Assembly (NCBI GenBank): GCA_023397675.1
Contig: JAEWTV010000128.1
Location: forward strand, 76,900 to 140,899
DNA: 64,000 nt
Source: Bacillota bacterium
GTDB lineage: Bacteria; Bacillota; Clostridia; Acetivibrionales; JANLFN01
Reading direction: 5' to 3'
The notes under the pieces were generated by a model that worked only from the letters and a program-made list of their open reading frames with translations, was not told the origin of the DNA and did no database searches. Every line of letters starts with the position of its first letter. Positions within the stretch are counted from its first letter, which is position 1. The translations under genes were made by a program, and so were the position numbers. Shown here piece by piece: positions 28,083 to 51,195 of this stretch.

Positions 28083-28170
28083 TTTAATTTTTTATATTTT
28101 AAAAAGAATACATGCACCATTGTCGGCATAAAGATATCGTATAAAAGAAATTATGCGAGGTGGCCGGATA

Positions 28171-29013
28171 ATGCGTAAAACTATAAGTCTTATTATAGTG
28201 TGTATTATGATAATGACAATATTTTCAGGATGTGGCCTATTACAGAAACTTGGCCTTGAAAAAAGTGACAATGATGAGCTCGAACCTGTAAGCAGTGTCG
28301 CAATTAACGAAACTGAAGCAAAAAAACTTAACAGTGAACTTCCGATACGCCTGTATTTCGCAAATCAGGATAACACCAAGCTACAGTTGGAGGTAAGATA
28401 TATACCTTTGGAAGAAGCAAAGAAAAGCGTAAATAACCAGGCATCTCTTATAGTAAAAGAGCTTATTAAGGGACCTGCAGGCAAAAGTGCTCAGTCTACA
28501 ATTCCTAAAGGAACAAAACTCCGCTCCCCTGTAAGTATAAACGGAAATGTTGCTACAGTAGACCTTACCAAGGAATTTATTGAAAATCATCCCGGCGGAA
28601 AGAGTGAAGCCCAGATGACAATATACTCAATAGTTAATTCACTTACAGAGTTAAAAGATGTTGAGAAAGTAAAATTCACCATAGATGGTGCTGCAAAGGC
28701 TGATTTTAAAGGCGTTATTCAGCTTAATGCAGTATTCCCAAGGACGGAAGCCCTTATTTCAAAGGAAGTTCCGCCTGCAGCCAATGACAAGGGTACTACC
28801 GATAAAAAAGATACCAAGACCGATACAAAAGCTGCCGACACAAAGTCTACTACAAAAGATACAAAGACTACTGATACTACAAAGAAGAGCAATACCGGTG
28901 ATATAAAAAAGGACACAACCTCCAAAGCAAGTACAAAGAGCGACAAGGCTTCATCAGCTTCAGTGGATGATTCAGAAGCAACATACCTTGATGAGTCGGG
29001 TTTGCTTGAATAA
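28171..29013 (+). CDS. GerMN-domain lipoprotein with a Thr/Lys/Asp-rich C-terminal tail
   Basis: Lipobox IFSGC and a GerM-like core (LYF.N...KL..E.R..P, VATVDLTKEF). GAGGTGG lies 7 nt upstream of ATG 28171. Confidence 0.75.
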   Translation: MRKTISLIIVCIMIMTIFSGCGLLQKLGLEKSDNDELEPVSSVAINETEAKKLNSELPIRLYFANQDNTKLQLEVRYIPLEEAKKSVNNQASLIVKELIKGPAGKSAQSTIPKGTKLRSPVSINGNVATVDLTKEFIENHPGGKSEAQMTIYSIVNSLTELKDVEKVKFTIDGAAKADFKGVIQLNAVFPRTEALISKEVPPAANDKGTTDKKDTKTDTKAADTKSTTKDTKTTDTTKKSNTGDIKKDTTSKASTKSDKASSASVDDSEATYLDESGLLE

Positions 29014-29179
29014 GGTTCTAAAACGAACTCCTTGGTGGAGATGGCAGGTTCGGAATTTAAAATTCCAGGCCTGCTTTTTTGTTGTGAGTATGTAGATATT
29101 TCGCCAACAAACTATACAAAATTAATAATACTATGGTAAAATTAAACATCATATGAGACAGACAAGAATGGAGCATTTT

Positions 29180-29827
29180 ATGAAAAAAGCAGCAGTTCTT
29201 CTTACTATTTTAATATGTACATTTCTTTCTGGTTGTTCTGAATCCAATACAAGTAATCAGCAGCAGGTTATGAATTCTATATCTATTAACAACTCAAATA
29301 CGGTTTCTAATGAGACTGTAAAGACTTTAAAGTCGGATGATTCCAAGACAATTGTTAATGTTTATACTTCTTTATCCAGAGAAACAGGTGATAATCAAAA
29401 GATAGAAAAAATACATATCAGTAACGGAGCTGACAGCTTTACTGTAAGTGATGTTGCCGGGTATTACGATAACATGCAGTGGGTTCAGGGGCAACCAAAA
29501 GTAGTTATAGAGTATTACGGAAGAACATGGAGAAATTTTCTCATTATTGACACTGAAAATAAGAAGGTTTTGTATAAGGAGCCGTTTAGTTTTAAAGAAC
29601 TTTTAGATAGTTTCATAAAGCATGGGGCGTCGTTCAATTATAGCCCCAATGGCAGCAGACCGGATGTTGAGTTTAAATACAGTAAAATACTTGATGATGA
29701 CAATATTATGATTAATTATAAAGTACGTGATGAAAAGTATTTAATTCAGAGTGGAAGCTTTATATACAGCATATCAAAAGCTACTTTTTCAGAATTGATA
29801 CAAAACGTGCCTATAAGTGAAGGGTAA
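29180..29827 (+). CDS. Hypothetical lipoprotein
   Basis: MKKAAVLLTILICTFLSGCSE signal plus lipobox. RBS-like AATGGAG upstream. Confidence 0.6.
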   Translation: MKKAAVLLTILICTFLSGCSESNTSNQQQVMNSISINNSNTVSNETVKTLKSDDSKTIVNVYTSLSRETGDNQKIEKIHISNGADSFTVSDVAGYYDNMQWVQGQPKVVIEYYGRTWRNFLIIDTENKKVLYKEPFSFKELLDSFIKHGASFNYSPNGSRPDVEFKYSKILDDDNIMINYKVRDEKYLIQSGSFIYSISKATFSELIQNVPISEG

Positions 29828-29839
29828 GAACTACAAAGA

Positions 29840-29860
29840 CGGCAGCAGCCTATGCTGCCG
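29840..29860. terminator. Hairpin between convergent genes (weak bidirectional terminator)
   Basis: CGGCAGCA/TGCTGCCG stem; the flanks are only moderately T/A-rich. Confidence 0.4.
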
Positions 29861-29872
29861 CCTTATATGCAC

Positions 29873-30769
29873 CTAAACCGACATGTCATCGGCTTCCTGT
29901 ACCGACTCATTCACTTCCACAAACGGCACCTTGTAATGATTTTTTCTGCGGCGTGCGATGCCTTCCTCTCGTTGAGCATATTCCGCAAAAACCTTTCCGA
30001 GATCCAATACATCATTCATTTCATAATAGCCCGGGTTTCTGTAGATGAAACGAACCGCCTTAACTGCACCAAGTGCGAAAGCTCTGCGCGAGAAGGATTC
30101 GTGTGATATTTCTATCTTATCATCTTCGCCGATAATCATGACTTCATGTTTTCCAACAACTCCTCCAGCTCTAATAGCTGTAATTGGAACACTGATTTTT
30201 TCCTCATTAATACCTGCATGGATAAGCCCTTTTTTAATTTCTCCGGCTATCTTTAATGCGGTACCTGAAGGGGAATCCTTCTTATATTTGTGATGTATCT
30301 CGGTTATTTGAAAATCATAATTGTTAAGAATGCATGATGCAAGATTTGACAGCAGCATAAGTACATTAACCCCTAAAGTTATATTAGGTGCGTATACTAT
30401 ACCGTTATGGTATTTCCTTGTAAGTACGAAAAGCTTTTTCCTTGACATATCCGAAAATCCAGTTGTTCCTATTACAAGGTTAACCTTCATATGCGAAAAA
30501 ACCCTGGCATTTCTTAGAGTTGCGGATGGACTTGTAAAATCGATTGCAACGTCCGGTTTGCTTCTAAAAACGATCTGTTCAATGTTATCCGAGCTTTCAA
30601 CAGGAATATCCATATCGGCACAGCCCAATACCTGACCCAGATCCTTTCCTTGCTTGCTGCTTCCTGGACTGCATACCGCAGCAACTATTTTTATATCCTC
30701 AATAGACTGTAATACTTTGGCGATCTCAATGCCAGTCTTACCAAGCCCTACAAGACATACTTTGATCAT
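29873..30769 (-). CDS. 4-hydroxy-tetrahydrodipicolinate reductase (DapB) family protein with a ~40-aa C-terminal extension
   Basis: Rossmann N-terminus MIKVCLVGLGKTG and DapB signature EIHHKYKKDSPSGTA. The DapB-like end ..YEMNDVLDLG is followed by an extra charged tail. Confidence 0.8.
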   Translation of the reverse strand: MIKVCLVGLGKTGIEIAKVLQSIEDIKIVAAVCSPGSSKQGKDLGQVLGCADMDIPVESSDNIEQIVFRSKPDVAIDFTSPSATLRNARVFSHMKVNLVIGTTGFSDMSRKKLFVLTRKYHNGIVYAPNITLGVNVLMLLSNLASCILNNYDFQITEIHHKYKKDSPSGTALKIAGEIKKGLIHAGINEEKISVPITAIRAGGVVGKHEVMIIGEDDKIEISHESFSRRAFALGAVKAVRFIYRNPGYYEMNDVLDLGKVFAEYAQREEGIARRRKNHYKVPFVEVNESVQEADDMSV

Positions 30770-30799
30770 AAACTGCCACCTCTGTTTCTTAAAAATGGG

Positions 30800-30830
30800 A
30801 ATAAAAATACTACAGAGAAGATTCTGTAGT
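30800..30830 (-). terminator. Expression-platform terminator of the c-di-AMP riboswitch
   Basis: Minus strand reads CTACAGA-atcttc-TCTGTAG followed by UAUUUUUAUU, about 35 nt upstream of the dapB-like RBS. Confidence 0.7.
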
Positions 30831-30864
30831 GAATGCAGGAACGTATATTACCCATTTAGTAGAG

Positions 30865-31008
30865 CATACCTATCACCTTCTCTTCCAACGCTTACGGGAT
30901 TAGCTGACGGATTCGGATCGAAAGAGTTTAACCCTACCTGACCAACAACAGTCAGGATTCACCCCAATTACCTGGTTCTCCCGCTCTTAAACAAGATTAA
31001 GCGCGCTT
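30865..31008 (-). promoter_or_regulatory. ydaO/yuaA-class c-di-AMP riboswitch aptamer
   Basis: Minus-strand motifs GCUUAAUC (31001-30994), GAGCGGGAGAACCA (30985-30972), GGGGUGAAUCC (30964-30954) and CCGAAUCCGUCAGCUAAUCCCGUAAGCG (30915-30888). These match the conserved blocks of the ydaO motif as I recall them. Confidence 0.8.
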
Positions 31009-31319
31009 ATAATATTATGTTTTTAATCCATATAATAATATATTCATAGACAAGTTGAATAAATTACAATATGTAAAAATATTATACACATGTTATGTCA
31101 TTTACTCAAATATTGCCCTATGAAACTATTACACAGCATTTAATACTATAGACGAAGATATTTATCTAAAGTTTCATATGAATAAACTTTTTCTTTTGGA
31201 TATATATTCTCGAATGATTTCCTTCTAAAACTTGAAGTTGGTGTTCTTAAATAGTAAAATATGAAATATACTTTTATAGAATTGGGGTCTTAGGCTTTTT
31301 AGCCGGTGAGGAGATATAT

Positions 31320-32438
31320 ATGTCTGATAAAAAAACTATTGCCGTGGTATTCGGGGGTCAGTCTTCTGAACATGAAGTTTCCAGGGTCTCAGCCCAATCA
31401 GTTATAAGTAATATAAATAAGGATAAATTTAACATAGTAATGTTTGGAATAACCAAGGACGGAAGATGGCTTCACTATGATGGCCCTGTTGAGTGTCTTG
31501 GAACAGGCGAATGGCAAGCTATTGCGGAAGCAAAAAATGCCAAAGCGCTTTCTGGCGGCAGCGCAGCGCTTGTGCCAGCCGTATCTTCGGCAAAGGGGAT
31601 TTTTAAGCTTGCCGATGGAGGTACTCCTTCAATAGATGTTGTTTTCCCTGTTTTGCATGGCTGTAACGGGGAAGATGGTACTGTACAGGGACTTTTTGAA
31701 TTGGCCGGAATACCATATATTGGACCGGGAGTTCTGGGATCGGCAGTTGGAATGGATAAGGTTTACTCCAAGATTATTTTTGAAAAGGAAAGCCTGCCTC
31801 AGGGGAAATATGTGGTTTGTTACAGAAAACAGATAGCATCTGCCATAGATAATGAAATAAAAGCTGTAGAAAGTGTGCTTGAATACCCGTGCTTTGTCAA
31901 ACCTTCAAATGCAGGGTCCTCAGTTGGTGTAGGGAAGGCTCATAACCGTGAGGAACTGATTACTTTCCTTGAGAATGCTGCAAGATATGATAGAAAGGTT
32001 CTTGTAGAAGAGTTTATAAACGGCCGCGAGATTGAATGTGCGGTTCTGGGTAATGATGAGCCGATAGCTTCAACAGTAGGAGAAGTACTTCCTTGCAACG
32101 AATTTTACGATTATAATGCAAAATATCTTGATAACAGTTCGAAAACTGTAATTCCTGCGGATTTGCCGACAGCCACAATCGCTGAAATAAGAGACTATGC
32201 TGTAAGAGCATTTAAAGCTCTTGATCTTGCAGGGCTGACAAGAGTGGATTTCTTTGTTCACAAAGAAACCGGGAAGGTTTATATTAATGAGGTTAACACA
32301 TTACCGGGCTTTACAAGCATAAGCATGTATCCAAAACTTTGGGAAGCGTCCGGAATTCCATACAGCGAGTTGATTGAGAGGCTTGCCGAACTTGCTATAG
32401 AAAGGTTCGAAGACAATAAAAAGGAAGTCGACAGATAA
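31320..32438 (+). CDS. ddl: D-alanine--D-alanine ligase
   Basis: IAVVFGGQSSEHEVS N-terminus, ATP-grasp body, EVNTLPGFT motif. Confidence 0.95.
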   Translation: MSDKKTIAVVFGGQSSEHEVSRVSAQSVISNINKDKFNIVMFGITKDGRWLHYDGPVECLGTGEWQAIAEAKNAKALSGGSAALVPAVSSAKGIFKLADGGTPSIDVVFPVLHGCNGEDGTVQGLFELAGIPYIGPGVLGSAVGMDKVYSKIIFEKESLPQGKYVVCYRKQIASAIDNEIKAVESVLEYPCFVKPSNAGSSVGVGKAHNREELITFLENAARYDRKVLVEEFINGREIECAVLGNDEPIASTVGEVLPCNEFYDYNAKYLDNSSKTVIPADLPTATIAEIRDYAVRAFKALDLAGLTRVDFFVHKETGKVYINEVNTLPGFTSISMYPKLWEASGIPYSELIERLAELAIERFEDNKKEVDR

Positions 32439-32482
32439 ACACAGCACCAAAAAGAAAATATCAGGGGGAAAATATAATTTAT

Positions 32483-33289
32483 ATGGATAACAGACCTATA
32501 GGGGTGTTTGATTCCGGGTTGGGCGGTCTTACTGTTCTGAAGGAAATTATGGAGCTTATACCATCCGAGAGTATTGTATATTTCGGTGACTGCGGTCGTG
32601 CTCCTTATGGTACAAAATCAAAGGAAATGGTAATCAAATATACTTTTCAGGATATAAGGTTCCTGATGGAACATGATATAAAAATGATGGTCATAGCATG
32701 CAACACAATGAGTGCATGCAGCCTGGAAAGCGTAAAGCATGACTTTGACATTCCTGTAATAGAAGTTGTTCAACCAGGAAGCCGATGTGCGGTCCGGGAG
32801 ACAAAAAACAGGAGAGTCGGCGTTATTGGCACTTCCGCGACTGTAGGAAGCGGAGTTTATGAAAAGACTATTAAAAGCATAGATAATTCTATTGAAGTGT
32901 TTTCAAAAGCTTGTCCCTTGTTTGTCAACCTCGCCGAAGAGGGTTGGTGGGATAATGACATTGCATTTCAAATTGCCAGTGAGTATCTTAAAGATTTAAA
33001 AAAGGAAAAGGTTGATACACTTGTCCTAGGATGTACTCATTACCCTCTTTTGAAGGATGTAATCCATAGAGTTATGGGTGATGATGTAAAGCTTGTAAGT
33101 TCCGCTATGGAGGTTGCTAAGGTTGTAAGGGAAGTTATGGAAAAGGACGGCATGCTTAGGGATACCGGGCTTAAGCCTGTATATAAGTATTATACAAGTG
33201 ACAGCATAGAAAAGTTTGATTCGCTGGGAAGTTCAATACTGGGGAAAAACATTGATTGTGCTGAACGGGTAGAAATTGATAAGTATTAG
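32483..33289 (+). CDS. murI: Glutamate racemase
   Basis: IGVFDSGLGGLTV, the catalytic Cys motifs ACNT and GCTHYP. Confidence 0.95.
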   Translation: MDNRPIGVFDSGLGGLTVLKEIMELIPSESIVYFGDCGRAPYGTKSKEMVIKYTFQDIRFLMEHDIKMMVIACNTMSACSLESVKHDFDIPVIEVVQPGSRCAVRETKNRRVGVIGTSATVGSGVYEKTIKSIDNSIEVFSKACPLFVNLAEEGWWDNDIAFQIASEYLKDLKKEKVDTLVLGCTHYPLLKDVIHRVMGDDVKLVSSAMEVAKVVREVMEKDGMLRDTGLKPVYKYYTSDSIEKFDSLGSSILGKNIDCAERVEIDKY

Positions 33290-36213: not shown

Positions 36214-39210
36214 ATGAATAAGAATTTTTTTAAATACTTCAAAAAAGTTAACAGGTTTGTATTGTCAGCAGCAGTTGCACTATCTGTAACTGCTTCAAGC
36301 GTCCCGGTCTTTGCGGAGACTACTGAAGCCTCTTTTACCGGTTCCTCAGACGCAACAGCTGTACTAAACAACTTACGATATAATGATGTAAGAAATTCAA
36401 ACACATGGGCAAAGGAAGCCATTTATGAATCAGGTGCTCTTGATGTAATAAAAGGCTTTGGAAGCCAGACATTTGGTCTTAATAGTACTTTATCAAAAGA
36501 GCAGGCAATTGCGATAGCTTATAGAATGGCTGGAAGAGAAGCTGATGCACAAAAAGCTGCAGAGACACTTGATAATGCAAGGTCCAAGGATGATAAAAAA
36601 ACCAATGCCATAAGTATGTGGTCTGACGGATATCTACAGCTTGCTGCCAATGAAGGCTTGATAAGCCAAACCGATTTAAATGATGCGTTCACACAGGATC
36701 AGACTTCCCTTGATACAACTGCCTTTCACAAAAGTGCTCCGGCACAAAGGCAGGAAATGGCTTTTTATATAGCAAAGGTTCTTAAACTTGACCCTGCATA
36801 TGAGCAGCAGGAAATATTCAATAGCTATAGTGACTGGTCTTCGGCTGACCCAACAAAGGTACCTTATATTGAAGCGGTTCTTAAAAATAATATTATGAAC
36901 GGATCAAATGGGCGTTTCTATCCTACACAGTCATTAACCAGAGAACAGGGTGCACAGATTGCAAAAAATGCTTCGGATACTATTCTCCCTCTTCGCAAAT
37001 ATGTGAAATACTCGGGAGTTATAGAAGATAAAACAGGAGTTTCTGATGTTTCTGTCAGCGGCAACATAAACAGAACTTTGCTAAGTGTACGCAATAGTAA
37101 TGGAAATCTTCATGTTATAACGGTAGATAACCCTGTAAATAGCTCAAGTATGGGCAGAAATGAAGAAAACGGACAGTATGTCAGCAATAATCAAAAGGAA
37201 TTGGTAGTTTATAAGAACGGTCAGATAGGTAACAGCAGTTTGCTTAGAACAGGAGATTCAATTGAGTACATAACAGCGCCTGATAAAACGGTTAAATTTG
37301 TTAATGTAATTAATTCCTCAAATACGTCAAGCTACATTGCCGTGAGGTTTGAAGGTATAGACCCAGCCACAAAAAAACTTACTGTAACACAGCTCTATAA
37401 AACAGACAACTCAGATGGTACGGGTTCAGTTATTAATTCCTCCATAAGCGGCACACCTGCCATATATAGCTATAGCAATAATGTTATAGTAAACTCTGAT
37501 GACGGTATTTCAAGTATTGATGAAATATCATCGGGAGCAACAGGTGTTGTAACGGTTACCAACGGAATTGTAACTTCCATAAAGTTGTCAAACCTTAACG
37601 GATACAACAAGGAAAAAGGTGTTGTAAGCGGTATAGTGCAGGACAATAATCCCCAGCTTGGTTATATAACCTTATATAATGCAGACGGTTCGGGAACAGA
37701 CCCCGATAAGGAAAGTCAGCTTATCTTGAGCAGAACATATAACTATAATACAGGAGATTTGGAAGTTCAGAAAAATCATTCACCTGCCGCAATTGAGGAC
37801 ATTGAGCCGGGAGACACTGTATTTTTAAAGACTGATGAGATGGGTACTGTTGTTTCCATAAGTGCTGTAGACAATTTTCAGACCAAGTATGCAAAAGTAA
37901 TTTCCAAAAAGCCCGCAACTATTGCCGTAAGATTCGATGACGGTTCACAGCAGGTGCTTGATGTTCCTTCACAGACACCGGTACTTTCTGACAATAAGCT
38001 GGTTGGTTACGGTTCTGTTAAAGACGGTGACCGTGTTCGTTTGATGCTGCATATAACAAATGGCTTCACGAGGGTTAAGGAAATAGCAATAGAAGGCAGT
38101 AAAGCAGGCGGACAGCTAATTTCAAATGTATATAAAGGAACGGTTTCATATCTTAATGAAGCAAAGAACAGTCTGGTTGTCCAAAACCTTCAGGTGCTGG
38201 ATAACGGCAAATGGCAAAGAATTGACCAAAAGGGTTTCAATGACATAAAGCTTTCAAAGGATTGCAGTATTTATCTCAATGACAAGGCAATTGACACAAA
38301 AACTTTAAACAGGTATTCCAAAGGAAATGAAGCTTACATAGCTGTTAAAAAGGATTATGGTAACGAAGAAAATGCTGTAATGGTGAGCTTCAGAAATATC
38401 GGGGATACTGAAACTTTGTATGATGACAGCGTAGCCAGTGCTGTTCCGGGTTCCAATTCATTCAGTATCATGAATTCTTATAAAACTGTATCATATGGAC
38501 CGGGCTCAATAATCATTAAAGATGGAAGACTTGTTACAGGCAGCAGCCTTAATGGTGATGACAGCGCTTACATAGTTGCAAATCTTAATAACTATGGAAC
38601 TGATAAGTATTATGCAGGGGTGGTCCAGGTAAGCCAAAGACCAAATTCCAACTTTATTCAGATTTATCGAGGCAGAATATCTAAGATTAATGAAAATCAG
38701 GACTTTACAGTTGAGTCATTCTCACAACTTAACGGAAATACATGGCAGTACAGTAATACGCCTAAAACGTTTAACCTCAAGAGTAGTACAAGAATACTTG
38801 ATGAATCAGGTGTGGTAAACCAGAGAGACTTTATTTCGTATGGTGATAACAGTTATGTAGGCAAGGTGGTGTATGTACTCGCCAATAATCTTGATACTGT
38901 AATGATAAGTGCTGCTCCATTCGGGAACGCTTTGGTGAAGGGAACCATATACGATGTATCAAGCGGGGGAACAGGCAGTGGTTCATCAGGAACAACTTTG
39001 AAACTGAGAAATGCAAAGTCATTTAATCCTAATACGAACCTATGGACAGACAGTAATGAGATGAGTATTGGAACGCTTAGTGATACAATTGTTATTAAGA
39101 ATAATTCAATAGTTACTGCGGATGATCTGAAGAACGGTGACAATATAAGGGTTATAAAGGCCGACAATACTCCTTCAGGCACCGGGTATATAATATTTGT
39201 AGAGAATTAA
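36214..39210 (+). CDS. Large cell-surface protein with N-terminal SLH domains (998 aa)
   Basis: Signal peptide ..SSVPVFA, then SLH repeats (NDVRNSNTWAKEAIYESGALDVIKG.., SMWSDGYLQLAANEGLI.., DWSSADPTKVPYIEAVLKNNIMNG). The remainder is beta-rich with no recognised catalytic motif. Confidence 0.8.
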   Translation: MNKNFFKYFKKVNRFVLSAAVALSVTASSVPVFAETTEASFTGSSDATAVLNNLRYNDVRNSNTWAKEAIYESGALDVIKGFGSQTFGLNSTLSKEQAIAIAYRMAGREADAQKAAETLDNARSKDDKKTNAISMWSDGYLQLAANEGLISQTDLNDAFTQDQTSLDTTAFHKSAPAQRQEMAFYIAKVLKLDPAYEQQEIFNSYSDWSSADPTKVPYIEAVLKNNIMNGSNGRFYPTQSLTREQGAQIAKNASDTILPLRKYVKYSGVIEDKTGVSDVSVSGNINRTLLSVRNSNGNLHVITVDNPVNSSSMGRNEENGQYVSNNQKELVVYKNGQIGNSSLLRTGDSIEYITAPDKTVKFVNVINSSNTSSYIAVRFEGIDPATKKLTVTQLYKTDNSDGTGSVINSSISGTPAIYSYSNNVIVNSDDGISSIDEISSGATGVVTVTNGIVTSIKLSNLNGYNKEKGVVSGIVQDNNPQLGYITLYNADGSGTDPDKESQLILSRTYNYNTGDLEVQKNHSPAAIEDIEPGDTVFLKTDEMGTVVSISAVDNFQTKYAKVISKKPATIAVRFDDGSQQVLDVPSQTPVLSDNKLVGYGSVKDGDRVRLMLHITNGFTRVKEIAIEGSKAGGQLISNVYKGTVSYLNEAKNSLVVQNLQVLDNGKWQRIDQKGFNDIKLSKDCSIYLNDKAIDTKTLNRYSKGNEAYIAVKKDYGNEENAVMVSFRNIGDTETLYDDSVASAVPGSNSFSIMNSYKTVSYGPGSIIIKDGRLVTGSSLNGDDSAYIVANLNNYGTDKYYAGVVQVSQRPNSNFIQIYRGRISKINENQDFTVESFSQLNGNTWQYSNTPKTFNLKSSTRILDESGVVNQRDFISYGDNSYVGKVVYVLANNLDTVMISAAPFGNALVKGTIYDVSSGGTGSGSSGTTLKLRNAKSFNPNTNLWTDSNEMSIGTLSDTIVIKNNSIVTADDLKNGDNIRVIKADNTPSGTGYIIFVEN

Positions 39211-39243
39211 TGCTGACAGTAAATAAATTACGGGGTGACACAT

Positions 39244-40767
39244 ATGAGAAAGTATCTAAAAATTATATTAAGCTTGACAATAATAGTGGGGTTGATTTTT
39301 CCCTCGATGGTATACGCCAGTCAGGGTGAATTCGGATATGAAGGTGGAGTATCAACACAGATACTTCCGGCCAAAACTGCCAGCAAAATCTCATATAATT
39401 ATTCGGAAATGTGTTTTATAACAGGCAAACCGGTTAAATTCACCGGAACTCTTACAATATCAAAATCTTCAAAGGCCAATGGCAAAACGGCTACATATAT
39501 ATACAGCCTTGCCAATACACAAAATAAAGCTACCCTTACCCGTACGCTTGTTTATAACACCAAGCTTACAACAGATGTAAACGGGCAGACTATAGAAGAA
39601 ACCTCATTTGGTAAAACACCTACCGAAGTTATTAAATTTGATAAGAATGTTTATACCCTTACAAATTATCAGCTGACAAAAACAAATATTATTGATTCAA
39701 AGCCTGTTTCAAATTATTTTTCGGGGAACATACAAAGCCTTAAGGAATATAATATTGGAAATAACCCGGTAATAGGAAAAATGACTGTGGATACTACCGG
39801 CAGATTCTATGGATATGACCAATATTGGAGCAGTTCAGAGGTACAAACACTGGATTATCTTTATAACTATGAAAGTAATGACAAAAAGGAAAAATGGGGC
39901 GGTTCAGTAAGTGTAAATGTTTCATCTAGTACTGTTAAAGACCTGCAATACCAGGAAAATGAGCCTGATCAGATAAGCTTTGACGGTGGTTACATTCAGA
40001 CTCAGAAAAACGATGTAGTTTTGGATTACAGCAGTGAAATGCCTGAATTTGATTCTAAAGGAATCTCTACGGATAATGTTGTTAAATCACAGGATAGTAT
40101 AAAGATGGAAGCATTTCCTACACAAACAAGATTACCTGTTACAGATCTCAATTATCTTAGAGGTAATTGGGCTGAGAATGATATAAAATTGCTGTTCAGT
40201 ATAGGAGCATTTAAAAATACAAGCGGAAAATTGGACCCTCAGAAATTCATAACAAGAGCAGAATTTGCTTCGGCACTGATAAATTCAGTAAAGGACGTTC
40301 CTGCTGACCCTACAATAAAGACTACAGCCACAAGAACAACCTCCAAAACGAAACTTACATCTCCTTTTAATGATGTTCCTACTAACAGTGTTTACTTCAA
40401 CGAAATAAACACCGCTTATAAGAAAGGTATATTCAGTGGGAGGGGAAATAATAACTTTGAGCCTGGTGAAACAATTTCCCTTGCAGAAGCGGTAGTCGCG
40501 TTCATAAGGGCTTTAGGACTACAAAATATGGCTCCAAATGCTAATGCAGTAACTACATTTAAGGATAATGATAGTATTCCTTCCTTTGCAAGAAGCTCTA
40601 TGTATGTAGCCGAACAAATCGGTTTAATTCATGCAGATGACCGCGGTTACATAAATCCTAACGACAAGATAACCAAAGCAAGGGCTGCAGTGATGCTTAA
40701 TGACCTTATAGAATACATGAGAAATGGGATATCAAAGGACTACAGGGAAAATATTCTGAATTATTAG
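39244..40767 (+). CDS. Secreted protein with C-terminal SLH domains
   Basis: Signal peptide ..PSMVYA and C-terminal SLH-like repeats (NWAENDIKLLFSIGAF.., FNDVPTNSVYFNEINTAYKKGIFSG.., FKDNDSIPSFARSSMYVAEQIGLI). Confidence 0.75.
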   Translation: MRKYLKIILSLTIIVGLIFPSMVYASQGEFGYEGGVSTQILPAKTASKISYNYSEMCFITGKPVKFTGTLTISKSSKANGKTATYIYSLANTQNKATLTRTLVYNTKLTTDVNGQTIEETSFGKTPTEVIKFDKNVYTLTNYQLTKTNIIDSKPVSNYFSGNIQSLKEYNIGNNPVIGKMTVDTTGRFYGYDQYWSSSEVQTLDYLYNYESNDKKEKWGGSVSVNVSSSTVKDLQYQENEPDQISFDGGYIQTQKNDVVLDYSSEMPEFDSKGISTDNVVKSQDSIKMEAFPTQTRLPVTDLNYLRGNWAENDIKLLFSIGAFKNTSGKLDPQKFITRAEFASALINSVKDVPADPTIKTTATRTTSKTKLTSPFNDVPTNSVYFNEINTAYKKGIFSGRGNNNFEPGETISLAEAVVAFIRALGLQNMAPNANAVTTFKDNDSIPSFARSSMYVAEQIGLIHADDRGYINPNDKITKARAAVMLNDLIEYMRNGISKDYRENILNY

Positions 40768-44227: not shown

Positions 44228-44333
44228 TGATTTTAGCGCAAATATTTCCAACCCGTATAAAATAACTCATTATTGACAATACTTCTTAATACCGATAACA
44301 AAAAACAAAAAAGGTATGATAAGGGGTGCGATA

Positions 44334-45047
44334 ATGAGTAAAGTATTGTCTGTGGTCAGGAAAAGCTTAAAAACTTTAAGTGGGAAAAAGGCTCTAAAAT
44401 TATCTTTAATTTTTGTTCTTCTTACAGTAGTAACGTCAGGTATGATCCTGTCCACATATTCCGAAAATGTTAATAAAAATCTTGAGAATAATCTTATAAG
44501 GCTGCATGTAATTGCTAACAGTGATTCTGATGCGGACCAGTCTTTGAAAAGAGACGTAAGAGATGCAATACTTCAGTATATGAAGGATGAGCTTAAGGAT
44601 ACAAAGAGTATTCAACAGACTAAAACAATTTTAAATAGTAATATTACAAAGATAGAAGAAATTGCTGCAAAGGTAATTAAAGAGGAAGGTAAAAGCTACC
44701 CGGTTAAGGCAATGCTTGGTGAATTCCCGTTTCCAACCAAAGTATACGGGGATATAACCCTTCCGGCGGGAAACTATCAGGCTCTTCGAGTTGTTATAGG
44801 CAGTGGCAGCGGAGCAAACTGGTGGTGTGTTTTGTTCCCTCCGTTATGCTTTGTTGATGCAACTCATGGCGTGGTACCGGATTCAATGAAACAAAAGCTC
44901 AAAAGTACACTCACCGAGGATGAGTACAAAATAATTACAGAATCAGAAGATAAAGATAATATACCGGTAAAAATCAAGTTTAAGATAGTAGAATTCTTTC
45001 AGGAGTCAAAAAATAAGATAGCAGCCTTTTTTAGCAGCATATTCTGA
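44334..45047 (+). CDS. spoIIR: Stage II sporulation protein R
   Basis: LIRLHVIANSDSDADQSLKRDVRDAIL and NWWCVLFPPLCF are SpoIIR hallmarks. AAGGGG RBS lies upstream of ATG 44334. Confidence 0.85.
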   Translation: MSKVLSVVRKSLKTLSGKKALKLSLIFVLLTVVTSGMILSTYSENVNKNLENNLIRLHVIANSDSDADQSLKRDVRDAILQYMKDELKDTKSIQQTKTILNSNITKIEEIAAKVIKEEGKSYPVKAMLGEFPFPTKVYGDITLPAGNYQALRVVIGSGSGANWWCVLFPPLCFVDATHGVVPDSMKQKLKSTLTEDEYKIITESEDKDNIPVKIKFKIVEFFQESKNKIAAFFSSIF

Positions 45048-46704: not shown

Positions 46705-48171
46705 GTGATTTGGTTGCTAAAACTTGATCAGAACCGTACTCCGCTGTTTGATGCAGTAAGAAAGTATGTTGATGATAAGGTTGTACAGTTTCATGTTCCT
46801 GGTCATAAACAGGGCAGAGGAATAAAGGAGTTAAAGGATTACATAGGCGAAAAAGCACTTCAAATGGACGCAAATGGTATGGATGACCTTGATTATGCAA
46901 ATAATCCTACGGGTGTAATTTTTGAAGCTGAAAAACTTCTTGCATACGCTTTCGGCGCACAGAACGCATACTTCCTGGTTAATGGCACAACAGCAGGGGT
47001 ACAAGCAATGATAATGAGTGCCTGTGAACCGGGGGATAAAATAATCATTCCAAGAAATGCGCATAAGTCAACAATAGGCGGAATAATTCTCAGTGGCGCA
47101 ATGCCTGTATATATACAGCCTGAAATTAATGAAGCTTTAGGTATTGCAATGGGGGTTACTGTTGAAAGCGTTAAGAAGGCTATTAAGGATAACCCGCACT
47201 CAAAGGCAATCTTTTTAATAAATCCTACATATTATGGAGCTTCATCAGATCTCAAATCAATTGTTAGAATTGCACATAGACATGAAATTGCAGTACTTGT
47301 TGATGAAGCACATGGTGCACATATGTCCTTTCATGATGACTTCCCGCTAACGGCAATGGAGGTTGGGGCGGACATGAGTGCAGCAAGTATTCATAAGACA
47401 GGCGGTTCGCTAACGCAGAGTTCAGTTCTGCTGCTAAGAAGCAACATGATTACCCCTGAAAAGGTAAAGCAGGTTTTAAACCTTACTACAACATCAAGTT
47501 GTTCATACTTACTTATGTGTTCACTGGATATTGCAAGGAAACAGCTTGCAACCTGTGGGAGCGACATGCTGGAAGATACCTTGAAGCTGGCAAGATGGGC
47601 AAGGGATGAAATAAACAAAATTGAAGGTGTATATTCATTCGGAAAAGAATTGATAGGCACACCAGGTGTATACGACTTTGATGAGACAAAGCTTGGGATT
47701 AATGTTCAAGGGCTTGGTTATACGGGCTATCAAATGGAAACCAAACTTCGCAGGGAATATAACATTCAGATAGAGCTTTCTGATTTGTATAACATATTGG
47801 CCATTGTAAGTATCGGAGACCGTAAAGAGGATTTGGAGGCACTAATTAAAGCATTAAAGGACATATCTTCAAAAACCGAAATAAAGCAGCCGGAAAAGGG
47901 CGTTTTGGTTCCTCAGACACCAAAGATGATTGTATCCCCAAGGGATGCATTTTATAGCTCCAAAAAGGTAGTTCTTCTTGAAAAATCTGAGGGGGAAATA
48001 GCTGGTGAAATGGTAATGGCTTATCCTCCAGGAATACCTGTTATTTGTATGGGTGAAAGAATAAATAGAGATGTAATAGATTACATAAAGATTTTGAAGC
48101 AGCAAAAATGTGAATTGCAGGGTGCTGCAGATCCACATGTTGATTATATCAGGGTACTTGGCAGCGAGTAA
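46705..48171 (+). CDS. PLP-dependent Orn/Lys/Arg decarboxylase family protein (B. subtilis SpeA/YaaO-like)
   Basis: TPLFDAVRKYVDDKVVQFHVPGHKQG N-terminus and the PLP-lysine region SIHKTGGSLTQSS. Confidence 0.9.
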   Translation: MIWLLKLDQNRTPLFDAVRKYVDDKVVQFHVPGHKQGRGIKELKDYIGEKALQMDANGMDDLDYANNPTGVIFEAEKLLAYAFGAQNAYFLVNGTTAGVQAMIMSACEPGDKIIIPRNAHKSTIGGIILSGAMPVYIQPEINEALGIAMGVTVESVKKAIKDNPHSKAIFLINPTYYGASSDLKSIVRIAHRHEIAVLVDEAHGAHMSFHDDFPLTAMEVGADMSAASIHKTGGSLTQSSVLLLRSNMITPEKVKQVLNLTTTSSCSYLLMCSLDIARKQLATCGSDMLEDTLKLARWARDEINKIEGVYSFGKELIGTPGVYDFDETKLGINVQGLGYTGYQMETKLRREYNIQIELSDLYNILAIVSIGDRKEDLEALIKALKDISSKTEIKQPEKGVLVPQTPKMIVSPRDAFYSSKKVVLLEKSEGEIAGEMVMAYPPGIPVICMGERINRDVIDYIKILKQQKCELQGAADPHVDYIRVLGSE

Positions 48172-48474: not shown

Positions 48475-51195
48475 GTGATATTATTGAAAGTCTTGGATAC
48501 ATTAGTAAGAAATATCGAAGAACATAACCGGAATTATAACGGTTTAAGCAAAAATGATGCAAGGCACAAACTCGAAAAATATGGCGCTAACACCATTGAA
48601 AAGAAAAAGAAGATTTCATCCATTAAGCTCTTGCTCCAACAATTTAGTGATTTCATGGTACTTATATTGATTGCGTCTACAGTAATATCAGCTTTTATGG
48701 GTGAAATTACCGAAGCTATCACCATTATCGCTATTGTTATTTTAAATGCAATTCTGGGTTTTGTTCAGGAATTCCGTACAGAAAAGACAATGGATGCACT
48801 TAAAAGCATGGCTGCTCCAGTGGCAAAGGTTATTAGGGAAGGCGTGCTCGAATTTATTCCGGCTGAAGAGATTGTTCCGGGAGATCTTATTGTAATTGAA
48901 GCAGGGGATAAGGTACCGGCCGATGCAACCTTAATAGATGCAAATAGTGTTCAGGTAGATGAATCCCTTTTGACAGGCGAATCTGTCCCGGCGGAAAAGA
49001 AGCCCATGCCGGAGAATGGAAAAGGCGCGAAAACCGAGAGTAGCGACAGTTCAATATATATGGGAACCATAGTTACATATGGAAGAGGTAAAGCAATAGT
49101 TCACTCTACAGGTATGAATACTGAAATGGGTAAAATCGCAGATATGATTCAGAGTGTGGAAGACGAACAAACTCCACTTCAGAAACGTCTTGCCTATCTG
49201 GGGAAATTTATAGTAGTTGGCTGCCTGGCAATATGTGCAGTAGTTTCAGTTACCGGTATATTGAGAGGGGAATCGGCATTCTCAATGATGCTTGCCGGTA
49301 TAAGTCTTGCTGTTGCTGCAGTGCCTGAAGGCTTACCGGCCATAGTAACCATAGCACTTGCATTAGGTGTTCAGCGTATGCTTAAGAAAAATGCGCTTAT
49401 ACGTAGACTTCCAGCTGTTGAAACCCTTGGCTGCGCAAGTGTAATCTGTTCAGATAAAACCGGAACACTTACTTTAAACCGCATGACGGTAAGAAAGATT
49501 TATGCTGGAGAAAACCTTGTTGAAATAAGGGATGACAAGGAACCTGGTGATGGGGTGTTTTGTTCAAATGGAAGAGCAGTCAATTCCGGCAAAAGCGGTG
49601 CACTAAGGCTTATTCTTGAAATAGGAGGCGTTTGCAACAATTCAGAGGTAAGAAAGCTTCCGCCCGAAGATGTAAAAGAACTTAACAAATTAAAATCGGT
49701 AGCAAAGAGGACGGATGTGTGGGAAGTTAATGGAGACCCTACCGAGGGAGCACTTTTGATTGCAGCATCAAAGTTCGGTCTCAGTTCAAAAGTACTTGGA
49801 GATTCATATTACAGAATAGATGAATTACCCTTTGATTCGGACAGAAAATGTATGTCAGTTATATGCGACAATCACAGGGGAGAAACCTTTGTATTTACAA
49901 AGGGAGCTCCGGATGAAATAATAAAAAAATGCAGCAGGATGATGACTTCAAAAGGACTAGTTGATATAAGTCCGGTGATGAGATCGGGAATCATGAGAGT
50001 AAACGACAGTATGGCTGCAGAAGCGTTAAGAGTTTTGGGATTTGCATACAGGAAGCTTGATTCAAGGGTTTTTAAGCATGATAAGGCTGAAGAAAATCTT
50101 GTTTTTGTAGGCCTTATGGGGATGATAGATCCTCCCAGAAAGGAAGCACAGGAAGCCGTAATTAAATGCAGATTGGCCGGAATCAAGCCTGTTATGATAA
50201 CAGGAGACCATAAAATTACTGCCAAGGCGATAGCAAAAGAGTTAAATATTTATAATGATGATGATAAGGTGCTGACAGGTCCCGATCTTGAGTTAATGAG
50301 CGAAAAACAGCTTGAAAAAGAGGCTCCCAATGTATCTGTATATGCAAGAGTATCGCCAAGACATAAGCTCATGATAGTAAGGGCTCTTAAAAAACAGGGC
50401 CATATAGTTGCAATGACAGGGGACGGAGTTAACGATGCACCTGCTGTCAAAGAAGCGGATATTGGTGTTTCTATGGGCATGACAGGTACAGATGTCACCA
50501 AAGAAGCATCTTCAATGATACTTTTGGATGATAATTTTGCAACTATTGTTTCAGCAGTAGAGGAAGGAAGAGTCATATATAATAATATAAGGAAGTTTAT
50601 CAGGTATATGCTATCCTGTAATCTTGGAGAAGTACTCACCATGTTTCTGGGTATGCTGGTAGGGCTTCCGATACCTCTGCTGCCCATTCAGATCCTATGG
50701 GTCAACCTTGTTACCGATGGATTACCTGCAATAGCGCTTGGACTTGACCCTCCAGAAAAAGACATTATGAAAGATTTTCCCAGGGGAGCAGGAGAAAGTA
50801 TATTCTCCCATGGGTTGCTTAAGCTGATTTTGGCAAGGGGAGTACTTATTGGTTTAAGTACGCTTGCCGTATTTATAAGTACACTGTATTTTACCGGAAG
50901 TATCGAGCGTGCAAGGACATCTGCTTTTGCAACACTTGTTTTAATTCAGCTGATACACGTATTTGAATGTAAGTCAGAGAAGAAAAACATATTTGATATA
51001 CCTATATTTAACAACCTTCCTTTAGTGTTTGCAGTAGCGTGTTCACTGGTGATGATATTTGGTGTTTTGTATATACCATTCCTTCAGGTTATATTTAACA
51101 CTGTTTCACTTACATTAAATGACTGGCTGATCATAGCGGGTTTTTCCACTGCTGGGCCTGTATTATCAAGTATGTTCAGAATACGCGGAACTTAG
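48475..51195 (+). CDS. P-type (type IIA, Ca2+-type) cation-transporting ATPase
   Basis: TGES, phosphorylation site [24 protein letters not shown], and a 10-TM topology. Confidence 0.92.

Follow-up and report, generated by a model that had tools for sequence, protein, structure and literature searches.

Why would a gene for a lysine-pathway reductase be kept apart from the lysine operon and placed behind a riboswitch for the second messenger cyclic di-adenosine monophosphate (c-di-AMP)? This question is raised by a locus in a 64,000-nt stretch of DNA from a Bacillota bacterium (contig JAEWTV010000128.1, positions 76,900 to 140,899), referred to here as the window. At 29873-30769 on its minus strand, the window encodes a 298-residue DapB, or 4-hydroxy-tetrahydrodipicolinate (HTPA) reductase, which carries a C-terminal tail. 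We consider it probable that this gene is a second, monocistronic copy of dapB and that it is controlled by a transcription-terminating c-di-AMP riboswitch of the OFF type.

To identify the leader RNA, we searched the window with cmscan and Rfam 15. The c-di-AMP riboswitch family RF00379 matched at 30873-31013 on the minus strand, directly ahead of dapB, with a score of 101.8 bits against a gathering score of 38 and an E-value of 4.7e-23 for the 64-kb window. The match spans model positions 1-134 of 134, and thus the full model, and was the sole Rfam match within the window. In the matched aptamer, helix P1 is formed by CGCU (31003-31000) paired with AGCG (30892-30889). A sequence-only reading of this DNA had recognized four ydaO-class blocks on the minus strand ahead of the DapB gene, had taken the RNA for a c-di-AMP riboswitch and had proposed a covariance search with RF00379 as a check. 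All four blocks are present verbatim and the score lies well above the gathering threshold. The span given for the RNA, 30865-31008, located it correctly but was a few bases off the matched one.

The predicted fold was further examined in an alignment of 39 homologous leaders. In the aptamer helices, 97.5% of the cells are paired and 15 of the 28 pairs changed on both sides, figures that are biased towards the structure, because the aligned leaders had also served to build the model to which they were fitted. The covariation values were reached by none of 500 shuffles, and slid controls were at most 50% paired. A hairpin loop read from the sequence, CUCUUUC (30926-30920), can form seven contiguous pairs, one of them G-U, with GGAAGAG (30886-30880), and both partners are nearly invariant. 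The loop and the tail probably constitute the 5′ and 3′ partners, respectively, of the class-typical pseudoknot. GGAAGAG is part of a purine-rich 3′ tail, GGAAGAGAAGGU (30875-30886, minus strand), which is conserved in nearly all DapB-associated leaders; across loci, the purine tail that follows P1, GGAAGAGAAGGUGA, is nearly invariant.

Downstream of the aptamer, a terminator scan found an intrinsic terminator (30800-30830, minus strand). Its hairpin, ACUACAGA-AUCUUC-UCUGUAGU (30830-30809), has a 6-nt loop, lies 42 nt past the aptamer and is followed by AUUUUUAUU. The scan returned five terminator-like sites in the region as compared to approximately one in shuffles. Between this terminator and the coding sequence, we read a Shine-Dalgarno sequence, AGAGGUGG (30783-30776), and the ATG start codon (30769-30767), which together occupy 30767-30783. 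The arrangement is therefore that of an OFF switch, with a terminator at 30830-30800 ahead of the ribosome-binding site, as had been anticipated from the sequence. Past the gene, a strong terminator (29836-29864, minus strand) comprises a 12-bp stem with seven G-C pairs and a T-rich tail, so the unit is monocistronic.

Over 206 nt, the window leader, through its terminator, has 77% identity with the c-di-AMP portion of the ablA leader from Dehalobacter sp. CF, and the window terminator aligns with the tested terminator T2 of that element. In vitro, the Dehalobacter element showed less than 5% read-through with c-di-AMP (White et al. 2022, PMC9337991). By analogy with this 77%-identical relative, for which the response is known experimentally, the window RNA would be expected to undergo c-di-AMP-induced termination.

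The architecture of the leader suggests how such a response could arise. When c-di-AMP is bound, the aptamer would be closed, and pairing with the CUCUUUC loop in the pseudoknot would hold its purine-rich 3′ tail (GGAAGAG). With the tail locked, the hairpin ACUACAGA/UCUGUAGU and its U-run would form, transcription would stop before the ribosome-binding site and the gene would be OFF. At low c-di-AMP, the freed tail, AGAGAAGGU (30883-30875), would pair with AUCUUCUCU (30822-30814), the proposed 3′ strand of an antiterminator, which consists of the terminator loop and the first three nucleotides of the terminator 3′ arm. By invading the terminator in this manner, the tail would block it, and the DapB isozyme would be made. 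The predicted duplex is 9 bp long with an energy of −12 kcal/mol, and its tail strand shares 4 nt with the pseudoknot partner GGAAGAG. A low level of c-di-AMP is associated with osmotic upshift, K+ limitation and envelope stress.

The proposed antiterminator strand was further compared across loci. The sequence CUUCUC(U/C) is retained in the terminator loop and 3′ arm in approximately 27 loci despite differing stem sequences, and this conservation argues for the antiterminator pairing proposed in the window. Five loci (L013, L012, L006, L024 and L026) have a second architecture, in which the 3′ strand of P1 and the tail form a helix of more than 20 bp with the 5′ arm of the terminator. In this helix, the changes in L024 and L026 are compensatory, and the z values against shuffles range from −2.5 to −5.5. 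Two further loci (L036, 1199-1324, and L039, 9868-9995) present a translational variant of the riboswitch: the tail, GAAAGAGGAGG, doubles as the Shine-Dalgarno sequence, with the ATG 4-5 nt past the aptamer match, which fits sequestration of the tail as the switching event. The DapBs of these two loci have a shorter tail and comprise 271 residues.

To define how widely the riboswitch accompanies dapB, one genome per GTDB species was scanned. This yielded 41 loci with proteins 56-96% identical to the window DapB, hereafter the subfamily, and 27 loci with distant DapBs. Upstream DNA was present for 39 of the 41 subfamily loci. Seven loci were examined with Rfam, and each had RF00379 immediately upstream of the gene; in two of these it was in tandem with the Na+ riboswitch, RF03071. 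Purpose-built covariance models, made from the Rfam-confirmed upstream matches, were then searched against all loci. A c-di-AMP riboswitch was found directly upstream of the subfamily gene in 37 of the 39 loci with upstream DNA. By contrast, the same models found none upstream of the 27 distant DapBs. The two exceptions within the subfamily, L038 and L040, had no c-di-AMP riboswitch even with filters off. Their proteins (L038 5268-6044 and L040 795-1598, Clostridium sp. N3C) are short-tail relatives of 272 residues that are 57-59% identical. Read by eye, their neighbours include a very long methionine-synthase-like open reading frame (ORF) in L038, a small thioredoxin-like one in L040 and a rhodanese-like one in both.

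Published dapB leaders carry a Na+ riboswitch upstream of a c-di-AMP switch, a layout that was considered for the window. It was rejected, as neither Rfam nor the purpose-built model gave a Na+ match: RF03071 was not detected in 30700-31400 at E-values up to 10, and the purpose-built Na+ model did not match the window at E-values up to 0.1. The defining arrangement of the tandem Na+-I/c-di-AMP elements, a Na+ aptamer with its own terminator immediately upstream, is thus absent from the window leader. According to the purpose-built model, a tandem Na+ aptamer occurs only in L003, L006, L016 and L035. In 33 of the 37 riboswitch-bearing loci, as in the window, the c-di-AMP switch stands alone.

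The protein encoded at 29873-30769 was compared with characterized reductases. According to Pfam, both domains of the enzyme are present, DapB_N (PF01113) with 94.2 bits and DapB_C (PF05173) with 128.8 bits, and the protein scored 215.5 bits on the NCBIfam equivalog TIGR00036, for which the cut-off is 122. The catalytic motif EIHHKYKKDSPSGTA (E-x-H-H-x-x-K-x-D-x-P-S-G-T-A) and the Rossmann motif GLGKTG (GxGxxG) are present and align with the DapBs of the PDB. The best PDB matches were proteobacterial DapBs (E = 1e-37; 1.5e-34 for E. coli 1ARZ), and the short-form firmicute and actinobacterial DapBs gave weaker matches of 1e-20 to 1e-22. In an alignment of 40 subfamily members, with a mean identity of 73%, the Rossmann GxGxxG, H159, H160, K163, D165, PSGTA, H208 and R228 are invariant. 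A library clustered at 50% identity retains one representative of the subfamily (65% identity, 399 bits); the next matches are 54% and 50% identical, and ordinary DapBs score approximately 130 bits. The window protein is most likely a real HTPA reductase that belongs to a discrete subfamily.

Two features distinguish the subfamily sequences. In E. coli DapB, Glu38-Arg39 are the nucleotide-specificity residues and contact the adenosine ribose of the cofactor. At this position, the subfamily has a nearly invariant Cys33-Ser34 (nt 30668-30673 of the window), which suggests a different preference between NADH and NADPH. The second feature is the C-terminal extension. The Pfam and NCBIfam matches stop at residues 255-256 and leave 42 residues, and the coding region of residues 257-298 corresponds to 29876-30001 on the minus strand. 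The first ∼20 residues of the extension are conserved (…L.K.L.DY.E.E…KR.), with nearly invariant D263 and Y264 and a K/R-R patch, and the remainder is variable and charged. AlphaFold2 modelled residues 257-278 as a helix, though with little confidence (pLDDT ∼50 or less past residue 257), and residues 279-298 as disordered. The description of the protein as a DapB-family enzyme with its catalytic signature and a charged C-terminal tail of about 40 residues was therefore borne out.

The sequence-only reading had also called this DapB a paralog, and the relatives lend support to that view. The nearest metagenome-assembled genome (MAG), OH_PDB_31 (JAEZTC01), contains a locus (L001) whose DapB is 96% identical to that of the window, with the same ddl-murI neighbourhood and a c-di-AMP switch only. 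The same MAG has a second subfamily copy (L035), which is 68% identical and lies behind a tandem Na+/c-di-AMP switch. In total, a contig scan found two subfamily copies in each of three MAGs. By cluster membership, the subfamily includes ABN52402.1 and ADU74154.1 of Acetivibrio thermocellus. There, the gene context is DUF155, DUF155, PilZ, Fe-S protein, S11 peptidase, DapB, …, AMMECR1, radical SAM, CdaA and YbbR, a 12-gene context identical to that of Clo1313_1084-1096 in the annotation list of Garcia et al. 2020. On the basis of cluster membership and the matching gene context, the A. thermocellus orthologue is Clo1313_1090. This gene carries a c-di-AMP riboswitch; a literature search for Clo1313_1090 returned nothing.

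Garcia et al. 2020 also annotate Clo1313_1253 as a dihydrodipicolinate reductase, and this second gene lies between aspartate kinase (1252) and dapA (1254), which is followed by asd (1255). In the mid-exponential proteomes from the same study, Clo1313_1253 was quantified in eight of eight samples. Clo1313_1090 is absent from the proteome table, though 1087, 1089, 1096 and 1098 are present. These data support the existence of an extra, normally silent isozyme in A. thermocellus. In none of the 41 subfamily loci does the gene lie with dapA, asd or lysC, and Pfam identified no lysine-pathway gene among the 30 further ORFs of the window. By analogy with A. thermocellus, where the orthologue coexists with a lysC-dapB-dapA-asd cluster, and with the nearest MAG, the window DapB would be an extra copy beside a housekeeping dapB encoded elsewhere in its own genome.

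Several observations weigh against a c-di-AMP-repressed second dapB or against parts of that interpretation. When the energy of the tail-terminator duplex was compared with that of composition-matched shuffled terminators, the common architecture, which includes the window, did not differ significantly (mean z = −0.9), because purine/pyrimidine composition alone gives pairing; only the second architecture reached significance. The antiterminator of the window therefore rests on conservation rather than on statistics. A slightly different alternative pairing was proposed for the Dehalobacter element (White et al. 2022, PMC9337991). That Clo1313_1090 is missing from a single proteome table argues only weakly for repression. 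In the part of the A. thermocellus annotation list that was examined, there was no lysine 2,3-aminomutase, which is weak evidence as well and weakens the β-lysine route in that organism. Finally, tblastn detected no second dapB within the 64-kb window. This last result, together with the score on the dapB equivalog model, would fit a gene that is the organism's only, housekeeping dapB, such that c-di-AMP gates the whole meso-diaminopimelate (DAP) and lysine pathway. We judge this to be very unlikely: A. thermocellus holds a separate dapB in its lysine cluster beside the riboswitch-controlled one, the closest MAG already has two subfamily copies, the subfamily genes are without exception unlinked to dapA, asd or lysC, and it would be risky to place an essential gene under an OFF switch.

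It is similarly improbable that the paralog has drifted to another reduction, such as a step in compatible-solute synthesis, and is a DapB by annotation only, an alternative that the sequence-only reading had raised. The discreteness of the subfamily, with its single representative at 50% clustering and next relatives at no more than 54% identity, is compatible with such a change, as are the conserved C-terminal extension, the Cys33-Ser34 substitution and the occurrence of the same kind of riboswitch ahead of ablA and eam, which are osmolyte genes (White et al. 2022, PMC9337991). The positions examined for catalysis and substrate binding, including EIHHxxKxDxPSGTA, H208 and R228, nevertheless show no variation within the subfamily, the equivalog score exceeds its curated cut-off by a wide margin, and no partner gene of a new pathway is conserved alongside. 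Nor do we think it likely that the enzyme is an isozyme dedicated to sporulation, which would supply meso-DAP for the spore cortex or balance the HTPA branch point against the synthesis of dipicolinate, with c-di-AMP as a developmental rather than an osmotic cue. The hosts are spore-formers, with genes for GerM and SpoIIR in the window and for SASP/SspH near relatives, a carboxypeptidase of the PBP5 type adjoins dapB in 17 loci, and A. thermocellus has dpaAB. On the other hand, the analysis gave no evidence of a sporulation promoter or regulator, the presence of tandem Na+ riboswitches ahead of sister copies speaks for ionic or osmotic cues (White et al. 2022), and the neighbourhoods are otherwise variable.

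If the gene is indeed a c-di-AMP-repressed second dapB, its product would add flux to tetrahydrodipicolinate, meso-DAP and lysine on top of that from the housekeeping enzyme, and would serve either peptidoglycan synthesis and remodelling or the production of lysine-derived osmolytes. The layout suggests that flux to DAP and lysine is raised specifically when c-di-AMP falls, as in osmotic or envelope stress, an idea that is testable in A. thermocellus, which is genetically tractable, by comparing Clo1313_1090 with Clo1313_1253. A more far-reaching proposal, which we advance tentatively and regard as doubtful, is that the dapBs with c-di-AMP riboswitches are not housekeeping genes but encode a dedicated, discrete isozyme subfamily, characterized by the helix-plus-basic C-terminal extension, by Cys-Ser at the cofactor-specificity site and by frequent duplication with one copy gated by Na+. 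In this proposal, the tail may add control or localization at the level of the protein. Its partner may be a c-di-AMP receptor of the DarA/PstA type, the gene for which directly follows the paralog in two loci, or the peptidoglycan-precursor machinery. A dedicated subfamily with such tail contacts would amount to a specialized stress branch of DAP and lysine synthesis.

The genes around dapB were also compared. In the window, dapB is divergent from ddl (D-Ala-D-Ala ligase, 31320-32438) and murI (glutamate racemase, 32483-33289), which occupy 31320-33289 on the plus strand and lie outside the regulated unit; Pfam confirmed both of these assignments, which had been made from the sequence. This neighbourhood is common only to the window, L001 and L002. 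No operon partner next to dapB is conserved across the subfamily loci. The recurrent neighbours are the PBP5-type D-Ala-D-Ala carboxypeptidase (17 loci) and a glycogen-phosphorylase-like gene (12 loci), the latter assigned by reading the sequence. In eight loci (L005, L008, L010, L011, L016, L024, L026 and L035), a small GGDEF-RHH (ribbon-helix-helix) protein of 206-224 residues is encoded directly upstream on the same strand. This ORF ends ∼400-670 nt before the DapB start, and its signature, RHGDEI, looks degenerate.

Other neighbours relate to c-di-AMP itself. In L069 (11025-11345) and L070 (11009-11344), which represent the same place as L035, a gene for a PF06153 (CdAMP_rec) protein, a c-di-AMP receptor of the DarA/PstA type, directly follows the tandem-controlled DapB paralog; as an ORF on L035, it encodes 106 residues. 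A similar-looking protein of 109 residues, compared by eye, follows DapB in L019 (∼915-1245). In A. thermocellus and A. straminisolvens, cdaA-cdaR-glmM lies 5 kb downstream of dapB. Overall, the neighbours hint at a theme of cell wall and c-di-AMP, and they do not decide between a peptidoglycan and an osmolyte role.

A promoter-like site, TTGAGT-17 nt-TATAAT, was found by consensus scan at 31081-31109 on the minus strand, with 10 of 12 matches. Such sites are no more numerous in the region than in shuffles, and this one is a consensus match only. If used, it would place the transcription start ∼60-70 nt ahead of helix P1. Convergent with dapB, a 224-residue ORF (29153-29827, plus strand) has a signal-peptide-like N-terminus with a lipobox (…FLSGCSES) and no Pfam match. 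Elsewhere, the window encodes GerM (28153-29013), two SLH-domain (cell-surface) proteins, SpoIIR, an Orn/Lys/Arg decarboxylase and a P-type cation ATPase (36214-40767, 44316-45047, 46705-48171 and 48475-51195). These genes point to a spore-forming host of the Clostridia type.

Some of the related loci presented further features. In L013 (4071-4907), the DapB frame is broken after 41 codons behind an intact riboswitch, which may reflect a frameshift, a pseudogene or an error of assembly. A second c-di-AMP riboswitch occurs in L034 (2098-2227, plus strand), ahead of a 233-residue protein that resembles a peptidoglycan-binding NlpC/P60 hydrolase. In L003 (14894-14946, minus strand), a second Na+ riboswitch precedes a putative membrane permease of 424 residues. 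T-box leaders in the flanks of L041 (14188-14442) and L014 (6327-6564) are unrelated to the dapB switch.

The control of dapB by a c-di-AMP riboswitch is a published association. According to Weinberg et al. 2017 (PMC5737381), c-di-AMP-dependent regulation is known for dapB and kamA. In White et al. 2022 (PMC9337991), dapB of Acetivibrio cellulolyticus and of Pseudobacteroides cellulosolvens is listed with a tandem Na+/c-di-AMP riboswitch ahead of it, and dapB is treated as a gene of osmotic stress. The suggestion in the sequence-only reading that dapB is a new target of this riboswitch class therefore fails. That reading had itself tied a loss of novelty to two circumstances. The first, that orthologues commonly share the leader, is what we found (37 of 39 loci); the second, that the genome has no other dapB, is made less likely by what the relatives show. 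In the searchable literature, we did not find the regulated dapB described as a separate, tail-bearing paralog subfamily, the single-switch form described as the rule (33 of 37 loci) with the tandem as the exception, or genomes with two such dapB copies. The window accordingly provides the known c-di-AMP riboswitch regulon with a further case that is clean and well conserved, and no new class of regulation. It also sharpens the published association, in that the c-di-AMP-controlled dapB appears to be extra, tail-bearing and apart from the lysine operon.

Among characterized elements, the Dehalobacter sp. CF ablA switch shares with the window the succession of aptamer, linker and terminator, as well as GGAAGAGAAGGUGAU, AUAUGCU and a terminator of the form …CAGA..CUUCUCUG…UUUUU. 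The window differs in lacking the Na+ aptamer and the first terminator, and in that the regulated gene is dapB and not lysine 2,3-aminomutase. With respect to the RF00379 (ydaO/yuaA) class as a whole (Nelson et al. 2013), the window has the full-length model match, the covarying helices, a purine tail that would form the pseudoknot and the layout of a terminator-type OFF platform. No structural difference was apparent, and the window departs from the class only in its gene, which is dapB instead of the commoner K+ and osmolyte transporters and cell-wall hydrolases. The tandems of A. cellulolyticus and P. cellulosolvens involve the same gene family and the same c-di-AMP switch, and L035 has their exact tandem form, whereas the copy in the window has the c-di-AMP switch alone.

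The gene product and its control may likewise be set against the housekeeping systems. Housekeeping DapBs, such as E. coli 1ARZ and Clo1313_1253, have the same two-domain fold, Rossmann motif, HHxxK and PSGTA as the window protein. They differ from it in the 42-residue C-terminal extension and in the Cys-Ser at the Glu38-Arg39 position, both of which belong to the window protein. The window gene, moreover, stands alone under the control of a second messenger and is not in a lysine-pathway operon. The lysine riboswitch of Firmicutes (L-box), for which cmscan with Rfam 15 gave no match in the 64-kb window, provides a parallel in that it exerts RNA-level, terminator-based control over a lysine-pathway gene. 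In the window, by contrast, the effector would be a stress second messenger rather than the end product of the pathway.

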